In this document: piece after piece, positions 55,698-56,608 of the stretch | How positions within the stretch are numbered: the stretch's first letter is position 1 | How the letters are laid out: each line of letters opens with the position of its first letter | From: Escherichia coli | GTDB taxonomy: Bacteria; Pseudomonadota; Gammaproteobacteria; Enterobacterales; Enterobacteriaceae | NCBI RefSeq assembly: GCF_003334385.1 | Contig: NZ_QOWN01000020.1 | Length of the DNA stretch: 64,000 bases | Direction: 5' to 3' (one strand) | Notes under the pieces: generated by a model | Database searches by the model: none | What the model was told of the DNA's origin: nothing | The model's input: the letters and a program-made list of their open reading frames with translations, nothing else | Position numbers and translations under genes: made by a program

Positions 55698-55739
55698 AAA
55701 ACGAGAGCGGTGGCTTAGTCTGGCTAAGCCACCTGTTAT

Positions 55740-56120
55740 TCAAAGGCTCCAGGTATTTAACCCTTTTACCTCTTTCTCATAGAACCATTTGTTCGTGTTA
55801 ACAGCAACATAGGCTGCTACGGCAATTCCCAGAATGTTAACGCCAATTAGTGCACCAACAAATAGAGATAGAATACCAAGTAATAGAACTATAATTGCTT
55901 TTTTCCATAACCCCAGGACAAATAAATATATCCAGGAACAGAAGAAAGCAATGAAATTCATTTGAATAGTTAAGCGTTGTCTTACTTTTAATGCTTTAAA
56001 TGCTGCTTTATATTCTGGTGTTGCCCCCCAGAATCCAGGAAAACCATGTTGATCATAAAAATTAAATCGGTATTTCCATTTTTCACTTAATGAACCATCG
56101 TTCATATATTCCTTACTCAT
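55740..56120 (-). CDS. yigF: Small inner-membrane protein YigF
   Basis: 126 aa from internal ATG (MSKEYMNDGSL); AT-rich; two TM helices. Confidence 0.75.
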   Translation of the reverse strand: MSKEYMNDGSLSEKWKYRFNFYDQHGFPGFWGATPEYKAAFKALKVRQRLTIQMNFIAFFCSWIYLFVLGLWKKAIIVLLLGILSLFVGALIGVNILGIAVAAYVAVNTNKWFYEKEVKGLNTWSL

Positions 56121-56133
56121 AAATACTCCATAA

Positions 56134-56514
56134 CTATTGTTTTGATGAATCAGTAGGTGCAAGCATTAGCATACTGAAAGTGGAAAAATAACAAATCAAA
56201 AAAATCATCGAACCATTGCCTGAACAGGCAAAATCTTCGGCTATCATTGTGATGATAGAGATGATATATACTGCTAATGTACCAAAAACATAAGTTTTTA
56301 TATAGATGAAACCACTATCACGGAGTCGCTGGCAATTCATGTTGATGACGAGATAATGGAGTACGATGGTAGAGACTATAACAAGAAAGCCTGCTTCTCC
56401 ATCGTTAAAAAAGATAATAAGAAAGGCAAAAATGAAATTTATTAAAATAAATGAAAATATATAACGACGTCTGGAAATCTTACCGTTAGATGTTGGGATA
56501 AATATACGTAACAT
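56134..56514 (-). CDS. yigG: Small inner-membrane protein YigG
   Basis: 126 aa from internal ATG ([20 protein letters not shown]); AT-rich. Confidence 0.75.
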
Positions 56515-56608
56515 AAATTTTACATCCTTGTATGAGTCTCCGGTCAGCATGGCAATATGCCCACTCTCATGCAAGAGTCGGCATATTTTTTCAGAATATA
56601 TTTATTTT

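Follow-up and report, generated by a model that had tools for sequence, protein, structure and literature searches.

Two genes of Escherichia coli K-12, yigF and yigG, lie in a segment that has been described as a 'promoter island' of 663 bp, horizontally acquired and bound by H-NS in all ChIP studies (PMC3661553, Table 1). The initial annotation of the region had named H-NS ChIP data as a check on its foreign origin, and the published binding agrees with it. Promoter-like signals are dense in this islet and the transcripts from it are mainly abortive (PMC3661553). An extended protein occupancy domain silences yigF-yigG, which is an example in Fig 7C of PMC8282354, and transcription of the two genes in K-12 is low, almost silent (PMC8282354). 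The islet has spurious AT-tract promoters, among them an H-NS-repressed promoter inside yigG, which is active in vitro and dependent on an AT-tract and on R451 of sigma-70 (PMC7229825). The horizontal origin, H-NS binding, promoter island, and silencing of the islet are already published and, as far as AT-richness, predicted foreign origin, H-NS binding, silencing, and the annotation of yigF and yigG are concerned, nothing presented here goes beyond that record.

Other described systems come close to this locus in other ways. DUF3289, a colicin M-like toxin that is soluble, and DUF943, its validated immunity protein, form an orphan type VI effector-immunity pair (PMC11148199, PMC12135965). YhaH, a canonical DUF805 protein, is needed for infection by the coliphages PhiWec188 and PhiWec190, to which a complemented strain is sensitive again (PMC12548472). 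In Salmonella, deletion of yigG affects both attachment and the tolerance of chlorine, to which the gene itself responds, although the phenotypes are modest and complementation is only partial (PMC3579871).

The islet and its two genes

The window, which is the whole 64 kb stretch of E. coli DNA that was analysed, is 100% identical to the sequence of E. coli K-12 MG1655. The RefSeq genes at the locus are corA, yigF, yigG, and rarD, with yigF and yigG the only two ORFs between corA and rarD (Table 1). The initial annotation described an AT-rich segment with two minus-strand ORFs of about 126 aa that almost abut, and this description is accurate: each ORF encodes 126 aa, there are exactly 13 nt from the yigG stop to the yigF ATG, and the GC content is 0.351 (55700-56600) against a window mean of 0.523 (z = -4.9, with a standard deviation of 0.035 over 901-nt windows of the 64 kb). 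This is the GC minimum of the whole window. The GC3 values are 0.28 for yigF and 0.32 for yigG, as against 0.62 for corA and rarD, and a CAI-like index, for which the long ORFs of the window were the reference set, gives z = -4.0 and -3.7 for yigF and yigG. By both windowed GC and codon usage, the islet differs from its flanks. A search for RNA families across 54000-58500 returned a single chance-level match.

Table 1. Features of the corA-rarD interval, in window coordinates
Feature	Position	Strand	Remarks
Terminator hairpin, bidirectional, common to corA (+) and yigF (-)	55709..55733	.	Terminator-like site scored on both strands; perfect 10-bp inverted repeat (I8)
yigF	55740..56120	-	126 aa, DUF2628, inner-membrane protein
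yigG-yigF spacer, 13 nt, with yigF Shine-Dalgarno GGAG at 56129-56126	56121..56133	-	Sequence
yigG	56134..56514	-	126 aa, four-helix inner-membrane protein, divergent DUF805-like
H-NS-repressed intragenic promoter fragment 'yigG 1.2', sense	56214..56363	-	Primers/spacer of PMC7229825 mapped on the window
rarD-yigG intergenic region, with yigG Shine-Dalgarno AAGGA at 56529-56525	56515..56608	-	
Conserved stem-loop, 14-bp arms, 6-nt loop, just 3' of the rarD stop	56554..56587	.	Inverted repeat (I6)

A second E. coli allele is ~77% identical inside the islet and ~98% identical in the flanks. Against this allele dN/dS is 0.15 for yigF and 0.20 for yigG, at dS of 0.7-1.25, and both 126-codon frames are intact; on this pattern of substitution, yigF and yigG are real genes under purifying selection. 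The K-12 YigF is 83-84% identical to the proteins from Salmonella and Superficieibacter and 70% identical to that of another E. coli allele, and homologous pairs in other genera persist down to 30-50% identity. The yigGF alleles are older than the species E. coli.

In all cases where a full-length YigG homologue was examined, there is a YigF-like gene directly 3' of it. These cases are Superficieibacter, Enterobacter E76, E. whittamii, Intestinirhabdus, Kosakonia, and Salmonella, as well as two more genomes and a pair of metagenomic contigs that have the genes at another locus. In every enteric genome examined yigG is first and yigF is close behind it in the same direction, the spacing in homologous pairs varying from an 8-nt overlap to 33 nt. 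Judged by gene order in this sample, YigG and YigF form an obligate pair.

In-frame starts upstream of each ORF had been pointed out previously, and they are present: a TTG at 56162 for yigF (+14 codons), and a TTG at 56574 (+20) and an ATG at 56550 (+12) for yigG. These are probably not used, since stops close the extensions in E. whittamii and Superficieibacter, since there are conserved Shine-Dalgarno sequences ahead of the annotated ATGs, and since the extension of yigG runs into the conserved stem-loop. The yigG ORF of E. whittamii cannot be extended past 126 aa, and the ACAAGGATGTAAAATT-ATG segment 5' of yigG is kept among the Escherichia alleles and is similar in Salmonella. The stem-loop has an RNA fold z of -2.7 and, across six distinct sequences, 91.7% of cells are paired compared to 38-55% in slid controls, with compensatory changes at two pairs, one of which has five pair types. 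A T-run follows it on the + strand, and this element is a probable bidirectional terminator or insulator. The terminator scan scored no terminator-like site between rarD and yigG, which makes the extent of the yigGF transcription unit uncertain. Within yigG, the AT-tract of 'yigG 1.2' maps to ~56300-56284 and, on our own reading of the sequence, the -10 element would be at ~56284-56275.

Cassettes at the rarD/corA junction

Of the 77 Enterobacteriaceae species measured, 57 have an empty junction (<200 bp) between rarD and corA, and the pair is present in few genera only, and so the pair is not universal at this position across the family, where its presence or absence had been suggested as a check on its origin. 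A functional link to RarD or CorA is unlikely, as most species with both genes are without the pair. Within E. coli (n = 5426 genomes), yigGF is present in 2962 genomes, DUF3289/DUF943 in 2627, and a further cassette, cassette X, in 1431, and alongside these are junction counts of 299 and 1410. DUF3289 is near yigGF in 299 genomes, where it has a DUF943 immunity gene of its own, and in E. whittamii an orphan DUF943 gene adjoins yigF. The DUF3289/DUF943 cassette is absent from the K-12 window. On inspection the 104-aa ORF of cassette X had seemed to be DUF805-like, a reading that was dropped as Pfam finds nothing in it.

In multi-cassette haplotypes the 137-bp 3' end of corA is duplicated along with the terminator hairpin. 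A duplicate of the rarD 3' end is present as a recombination scar, and a remnant of the yigG 5' end is left in the haplotype with only DUF3289/DUF943. These duplicates and this remnant, together with the similarities across species, suggest that the cassettes are exchanged by homology-assisted recombination in the conserved flanks. There is no integrase or transposase in the corA-rarD interval, the islet being without mobility genes, and the att-like flanking direct repeats are only short, imperfect, two-copy matches, as expected by chance. Nor does the pair appear to be carried by phages: there is no PHROGs match, the matches in phage collections are 1.6-3.5 kb unannotated fragments only, and one yigGF locus is present among 2.9 million viral contigs. 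Carriage by plasmids was rejected, since the 'plasmid' records are chromosome-sized or include core genes, rarD, corA, and uvrD among them. The islet is a ~0.9-kb accessory cassette at the convergent rarD/corA junction, which is a recurrent insertion/replacement hot spot.

An old horizontal acquisition had been suggested for the islet on the basis of its composition. That it is horizontal is upheld by composition, codon usage, patchy distribution, and incongruent similarity, but its description as old needs qualifying. The polymorphism in E. coli, the deep divergence of the alleles, and similarity that is greater across genera than within the species indicate that yigGF is still being exchanged.

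The two proteins and their possible role

YigF matches Pfam DUF2628 (PF10947) at 40.1 bits (E-value 5.2e-10), over positions 9-91 of the 93 in the model. A Foldseek search of AFDB50 gives 133 matches at E<=1e-3; nearly all of the best 50 of these 133 are annotated as DUF2628 and, among the matches listed, those that are full-length have query-normalised TM-scores mostly of 0.7-0.9. No solved structure was matched by Foldseek for YigF, nor by sequence-profile searches. The AlphaFold2 model has a pLDDT of 86 and the hydrophobicity profile has one short broken segment and a 35-residue hydrophobic hairpin, which would make YigF a soluble N-terminal domain of ~55 aa, facing the cytoplasm, followed by a hydrophobic hairpin. 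Solitary YigF-type DUF2628 proteins are present in unrelated, core-like contexts (Pseudomonas, Pantoea), the spread of this type reaching the Actinobacteria. HrpL control of a Pseudomonas DUF2628 gene was considered and rejected, the in-silico hrp-box score being borderline and without RNA-seq support.

Each protein had been credited with two hydrophobic helices, which is wrong, as YigG has four hydrophobic segments (~17-36, 41-59, 74-92, and 102-120); its AlphaFold2 model likewise has four helices (pLDDT 83). The RRRY motif is where it had been noticed, just ahead of the first helix, at residues 15-18. YigG scores 255.6 bits against NCBIfam PRK11371, for which the curated cut-off is 217, and the 12 additional N-terminal positions of that model are not used by YigG. 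The match of YigG to Pfam DUF805 (PF05656) falls short of significance, with an E-value of 0.023, and among 14 members of the YigG family there are seven DUF805 matches at E<=0.1 and one at E<=0.001, the best being 4.5e-4. The family alignment has R63 and R65 invariant and D66 near-invariant, in an R-x-R-D loop after TM2. Outside the YigG family the Foldseek neighbours are almost all DUF805, at E-values of 0.3-4. As read from these profiles and models, YigG is a divergent DUF805-like family, tiny and enteric-only; there are just 30 matches to it among 1.84 billion representatives. YigF and YigG are not paralogues of one another, with a profile-profile probability of 0.2%.

Taken as a whole, the explanation preferred here, that this is the known yigG-yigF pair of K-12, carried as an accessory cassette at a hot spot and proposed to be a membrane module, is given a probability of roughly 0.7. 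YigG and YigF would be translated from one mRNA and would assemble into a heteromeric complex in the inner membrane. The role of this module is put forward tentatively, as a conditionally expressed protective function in the inner membrane, of an immunity or exclusion type, against membrane-targeting toxins or phage entry; such a protective role would be favoured over transport or metabolism. That the two components guard against membrane-targeting toxins or phage genome entry and are kept by conflict-driven selection is a doubtful proposition as it stands. If so, yigGF may be among several alternative alleles that different species have in common at the rarD/corA hot spot, beside the type VI effector-immunity cassette.

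It is possible, though not likely, that YigF and YigG serve membrane homeostasis or stress tolerance in a general way and take no part in conflict, their AT-richness and silencing being incidental to an ordinary accessory function. Both DUF2628 and DUF805 extend over many phyla, where the members are for the most part single genes with nothing notable around them, and the Salmonella yigG mutant has its attachment and chlorine phenotypes and its response to chlorine (PMC3579871). The selection on the pair, at a dN/dS of 0.15-0.20, is ordinary purifying and not diversifying. A general physiological role also fits better than a strain-specific weapon or shield with the solitary, core-like, and widespread occurrence of YigF-type DUF2628. 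However, the pair is absent from most Enterobacteriaceae and from nearly half of the E. coli genomes, it is silenced by H-NS in K-12, and its alleles are deeply divergent and closer across genera than within E. coli. The Salmonella phenotypes themselves are slight and incompletely complemented (PMC3579871).

A second possibility, regarded as unlikely, is that YigG, YigF, or both are orphan immunity proteins that neutralise a membrane-acting toxin of other enterobacteria, the toxin gene itself not having been kept. A type VI effector, a pore-forming colicin, or a contact-dependent inhibition toxin would be candidates for such a toxin. YigF and YigG resemble the immunity proteins against pore-formers in their small size, polytopic form, and very short external loops. 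The presence of the DUF3289 effector with DUF943 at the same junction in nearly half of the E. coli genomes, the orphan DUF943 beside yigF in E. whittamii, and the deep allelic and presence/absence polymorphism of the locus are in keeping with this idea. Yet none of the loci with the pair, that of K-12 and 10 others, has a toxin-like gene beside it, and DUF3289, where it is present, has its own immunity gene. DUF2628 and DUF805 have no entry as type VI immunity families in the 12 supplementary files of PMC11148199 that formed the part of that effector-immunity catalogue covered here. The low dN/dS, the solitary relatives of YigF in core-like Pseudomonas contexts, and the conserved part of YigF, which would face the cytoplasm on the predicted topology, also argue against it. 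Between Salmonella and K-12, YigF is 84% identical and YigG only 58%, an uncoupled divergence that is unlike that of cognate toxin-immunity pairs.

Less probable again is a module that interacts with phages, in which YigG with YigF would be either an inner-membrane entry factor that some phages exploit or an exclusion device that blocks genome entry. Phage pressure would, on such an account, maintain the polymorphism of the locus. The requirement of PhiWec188 and PhiWec190 for the DUF805 protein YhaH (PMC12548472) and the strong polymorphism of the locus in E. coli speak for it. Against it, YigF and YigG match nothing in PADLOC-DB 2.0 at E<=1, neither PADLOC nor PHROGs has anything for the proteins of the alternative cassettes either, and the pair is not phage-borne. 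The genes are also silent in K-12 under laboratory conditions (PMC8282354), and the relationship between YigG and YhaH is distant.

Vertical inheritance, with the low GC arising from the amino acids of membrane proteins and no horizontal transfer, is very improbable and is largely refuted already. Residues with AT-rich codons (Ile, Phe, Leu, Asn, Lys, and Tyr) are abundant in both proteins, and the pair is at one constant chromosomal site in enteric genomes, but the synonymous sites are AT-rich too, as the GC3 values demonstrate, the site is empty in most species, the similarities are incongruent with species relationships, one pair is at a different locus, and there are recombination scars. 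That the genes are spurious ORFs in an AT-rich spacer, as the scant transcription in K-12 (PMC8282354) and the mainly abortive transcripts from dense promoter-like signals (PMC3661553) might have indicated, is refuted by the conservation pattern, with intact frames at low dN/dS and homologous pairs in other genera, along with confident AlphaFold2 models and matches to curated family models.

Comparison with described systems

The context that is added here for the assignment of a function is the obligate pairing, the probable distant kinship of YigG to YhaH, and a rarD/corA hot spot that is family-wide, at which the E. coli chromosome alternates between yigGF, the type VI effector-immunity pair, and a third cassette. 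Leads towards a protective role are the validated type VI effector-immunity pair at the same junction (PMC11148199, PMC12135965), the dependence of two coliphages on the canonical DUF805 protein YhaH (PMC12548472), the deep presence/absence and allelic polymorphism of the locus, and the effects of yigG deletion in Salmonella on attachment and chlorine tolerance (PMC3579871). Were the proposed protective module true, a DUF805/DUF2628 pair would have a function for the first time. As an obligate and polymorphic pair, yigG and yigF, two poorly characterised 'y-genes' of K-12, are worth study with phages and in competition.

Among the H-NS-silenced xenogeneic islets and promoter islands, the yigGF segment is a member that is unusually small (0.9 kb). 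As in other integration hot spots, there are alternative cassettes between conserved genes at the rarD/corA junction, which is mostly empty in relatives and where tandem stacking is possible; it differs from these in that its cassettes are very small (0.9-1.7 kb) and in that no integrase or att repeats were found. YigF is like other DUF2628 (PF10947) proteins of the Proteobacteria and Actinobacteria in having an N-terminal helical domain and a hydrophobic hairpin, but in all the enteric genomes examined there is a YigG gene ahead of YigF, whereas the members that were examined in Pseudomonas and Pantoea stand alone.

YigG resembles the DUF805 proteins YhaH and YhaI in the basic motif before TM1, which is SRRRY in YigG and ARRKEY in YhaH/YhaI, and in the charged loop after TM2, which is QRLRD in YigG and RRLHD in YhaH/YhaI. 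It differs from them in an extra helix between this loop and the last helix, and its branch is tiny and confined to enteric bacteria, while YhaH is a phage infection factor (PMC12548472). The DUF3289/DUF943 cassette shares with yigGF the rarD/corA junction, the orientation, an AT-rich composition (GC ~0.3), two genes, and polymorphism in E. coli. In contrast to that toxin and its immunity protein, YigG and YigF have no toxin-like domain, each of them being small, polytopic, and in the membrane.

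Composition and coding content of the islet

Taking the present results and the literature together, the yigG-yigF islet between rarD and corA (cassette yigGF) is an AT-rich, H-NS-silenced accessory cassette, probably exchanged by recombination, which codes for two small inner-membrane proteins conserved as a pair. Its sequence matches MG1655 with 100% identity, which makes the window E. coli K-12, and the RefSeq gene order is corA (+), yigF (-), yigG (-), rarD (-), yigI (-), pldA (+). The initial annotation had described two minus-strand ORFs of about 126 aa with a gap of about 13 nt, in a segment more AT-rich than its flanks. 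Coordinates and RefSeq annotation agree with the former, the yigF ATG lying 13 nt after the stop codon of yigG. As to the latter, GC is 0.351 for 55700-56600 versus 0.523 for the window (z = -4.9), the lowest of any 0.9 kb in the 64 kb. Third-position GC, at 0.28 in yigF and 0.32 in yigG versus 0.62 in corA and rarD, agrees with this, as does codon usage, both genes being about 4 standard deviations under the mean codon-adaptation index (reference, the long ORFs of the window). The sole other markedly AT-rich stretch in the window (GC ~0.30) is non-coding, upstream of a 551-aa minus-strand ORF and downstream of a 398-aa ORF. The corA leader contains ysgD, an 18-codon, RefSeq-annotated ORF that is labelled 'YsgD/CorL family' in Salmonella.

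Features of the islet, the window and the rarD/corA junction of other genomes (L numbers are retrieved junction loci, in their own coordinates)
Feature	Sequence	Position	Strand	Remark
Perfect terminator hairpin	window	55709-55733	both	bidirectional; between corA and yigF
yigF	window	56120..55740	-	126 codons
yigG	window	56514..56134	-	126 codons
Hairpin	window	56554-56587		14-bp stem; between rarD stop and yigG start
AT-rich stretch	window	~39275-39810
ysgD	window	54539-54595
yigG 5' remnant	L004	5942-6084		equivalent to window 56428-56608
Partial corA/rarD 3'-end duplicates	L005	3060-3206
	L003	1452-1598
	L007	4429-4671, 4728-4910
Cassette X, first ORF	L003	1623-2009	-	128 aa
Cassette X, second ORF	L003	2207-2521	+	~100 aa
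Orphan DUF943 gene	L010	7867-8364		E. whittamii
Inserts in other genera	L076	7014-7567
	L059/L061/L063/L067/L078	~7000-8000
	L072/L077	6952-7855

In about one in ten complete E. coli genomes the islet is present as a second allele, which is ~98% identical to K-12 in corA and rarD versus 56-88% per 50-nt window in the islet, the drop lying exactly between ~55750 and ~56600. Between the alleles dS is 1.25 for yigF and 0.70 for yigG versus 0.11-0.17 in the flanks, and the two alleles are far older than the divergence of these flanks. Both frames retain 126 codons in the second allele and dN/dS is 0.15 (yigF) and 0.20 (yigG); purifying selection acts on both proteins, and that the ORFs are spurious is effectively refuted by the ratios and the intact frames.

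Both ORFs do have in-frame upstream start codons, as had been claimed, which are probably not used, since the ORFs in E. whittamii (both) and Superficieibacter (yigF) cannot be extended past 126 codons and since Shine-Dalgarno sequences (GGAG, AAGGA) precede the annotated ATGs, that of yigG being conserved. The Superficieibacter yigG ORF has 121 codons. For yigG there is a further argument against their use, in that the upstream starts overlap the rarD-proximal hairpin, a conserved stem-loop that the extension would cross.

Six distinct cassette sequences, which come from the three genera Escherichia, Salmonella and Superficieibacter, all keep this hairpin. Across their alignment 91.7% of its cells are paired versus 38-55% in slid controls, and there are compensatory changes at two positions, one with five pair types. 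A T-run follows it on the plus strand and a U-poor tail on the minus strand. It is likely to be a terminator or insulator, which would mainly halt antisense transcripts from the promoter-rich islet ahead of rarD, and would halt rarD read-through weakly.

Gene pairing and the rarD/corA junction

yigG and yigF form an obligate pair. A YigF-like DUF2628 gene lies directly after every full-length YigG homologue with readable context, on the same strand, the two ORFs overlapping by 8 nt at one extreme and lying 33 nt apart at the other. Pairs are present in Superficieibacter, Enterobacter sp. E76, E. whittamii, Intestinirhabdus, Kosakonia, Salmonella, two additional genomes and one short contig, and at another locus in two metagenomic contigs; the sole exception to pairing is a more distant, plasmid-borne relative (E 4e-7). 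In Pseudomonas and Pantoea, YigF-type proteins are encoded alone, and their contexts are unrelated. The two genes probably share a single mRNA, and their products may form a heteromeric membrane complex.

The rarD neighbourhoods of 80 Enterobacteriaceae species were fetched, the rarD-corA interval being measurable in 77. In 57 of these, among them Citrobacter, most Enterobacter, Klebsiella, Kluyvera, Lelliottia, Leclercia, Raoultella and Buttiauxella, fewer than 200 bp separate the two genes, so that the pair is not universal in the family, and the remaining species have unrelated inserts. Of 5426 complete E. coli genomes, 2962 have yigGF, 2627 have a DUF3289/DUF943 cassette, whose genes have been validated as a type VI effector-immunity pair (PMC11148199, PMC12135965), and 1431, O157:H7 among them, have a third occupant, cassette X. 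Junction-specific queries find DUF3289/DUF943 together with yigGF in 299 genomes and with X in 1410, leaving by subtraction ~2660 with yigGF alone and ~920 with DUF3289/DUF943 alone. Across the family the junction is a hot spot, and E. coli has four haplotypes of it.

The first ORF of cassette X, without RefSeq annotation, encodes a distant YigG relative (24-27% aligned identity); the second, divergent, encodes a small membrane protein with no Pfam match. In E. whittamii the DUF943 gene, without a DUF3289 effector, is directly downstream of yigF. Other inserts comprise two small ORFs in Siccibacter, by eye BrnT/BrnA-type toxin-antitoxin-like, a gene of normal GC with histidine motifs resembling those of desaturases in Pluralibacter-like genomes, and a 300-aa secreted protein in Raoultella ornithinolytica. 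Several E. coli strains have IS1 insertions in yigFG or cassette X, and truncated YigF and YigG variants are numerous in the protein collection, which would mean that yigF and yigG are often inactivated.

Stacked cassettes have between them 137 bp copied from the corA 3' end together with its terminator, and in Enterobacter sp. E76 the rarD 3' end is duplicated too; such duplicates look like scars of homology-assisted insertion. In the DUF3289/DUF943-only haplotype the rarD-proximal hairpin is still present, as is a decayed piece of the yigG 5' end with a ~38-nt deletion, and yigGF therefore preceded this haplotype. There is no integrase among the ORFs of the islet, no convincing repeats were found flanking it, and carriage of the pair by phages or genuine plasmids was not found. 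K-12 YigF is 84% identical to that of Salmonella, 83% to Superficieibacter and 70% to the other E. coli allele, while for YigG the order differs (58%, 46% and 76%, respectively). Taken together, the scars, the lack of integrase or repeats and the cross-species similarities suggest that homologous recombination in the conserved flanks exchanges the cassette, breakpoints falling inside it as well. The horizontal acquisition proposed from composition, already in the literature, is thus supported by composition, empty sites and cross-species similarity. Vertical inheritance with compositional bias is effectively refuted by third-position GC, empty sites and incongruent similarity.

Silencing and possible function

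PMC3661553 opens with a figure of the 663-bp yigF/yigG 'promoter island' and lists it in a table as H-NS-bound in all ChIP studies and as called foreign by two independent predictors. In PMC8282354 (Fig 7C) yigF-yigG is shown to be silenced by a small extended protein occupancy domain, and an H-NS-repressed, AT-tract-dependent promoter inside yigG has been dissected (PMC7229825). In Salmonella, yigG is chlorine-responsive, its deletion reduces attachment to plastic and produce, and it is absent from serovar Enteritidis (PMC3579871). Both the observation, which is confirmed, and its interpretation, which is supported, are already published. The obligate pairing, DUF805-like YigG, family-wide hot spot, four E. 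coli haplotypes, cross-species shared alleles and conserved boundary hairpin are fresh context, which sharpens the experiments able to assign a function to two uncharacterised K-12 genes.

Tentatively, at a probability of about 0.3, yigGF may be expressed conditionally and act protectively at the inner membrane, as an immunity- or exclusion-type system. This is favoured by the type VI effector-immunity neighbours at the same junction, by deep polymorphism both in alleles and in presence or absence, by very short external loops of the kind typical for intramembrane-acting protectors, and by the link of YhaH, a canonical DUF805 protein, to phage, two coliphages needing it for infection (PMC12548472). 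Against it, no toxin adjoins the pair anywhere examined, neither YigF nor YigG matches a defence model, purifying selection is ordinary, yigG and yigF divergence is uncoupled, and solitary YigF relatives are in core-like contexts. These last arguments speak for the main rival, a general role in membrane homeostasis or stress, which is itself tentative and slightly less probable than the protective one.

Relationship to known protein families

YigF belongs to DUF2628 (Pfam E 5.2e-10). Its AlphaFold2 model is confident (pLDDT 86) and has 133 AFDB50 neighbours at E<=0.001; among the matches listed, nearly all are annotated DUF2628, from Proteobacteria to Actinobacteria. The description of two hydrophobic helices in each protein does not hold, YigF having a short broken segment and a long hairpin and YigG four helices, although the RRRY motif reported for YigG is present. 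YigF and YigG are unrelated, and no solved relative of either was found.

YigG is recognised by the NCBI YigG equivalog model, and its family is very small, with 30 matches at E<=0.001 among 1.84 billion representative proteins, all those taxonomically placeable being from enterobacterial genomes. The Pfam DUF805 match is weak (E 0.023), with seven of 14 family members matching at E<=0.1 (best 4.5e-4), and beyond its own family the structural neighbours are almost all DUF805 proteins, with weak E-values. In alignment, YigG shares with YhaH and YhaI, two DUF805 proteins of K-12, a basic motif before TM1 and a charged loop after TM2 (QRLRD in YigG, RRLHD in the other two). From these motifs, neighbours and borderline matches YigG is called a divergent DUF805-like protein, its membership being unproven. 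It differs from YhaH and YhaI in having one additional helix.
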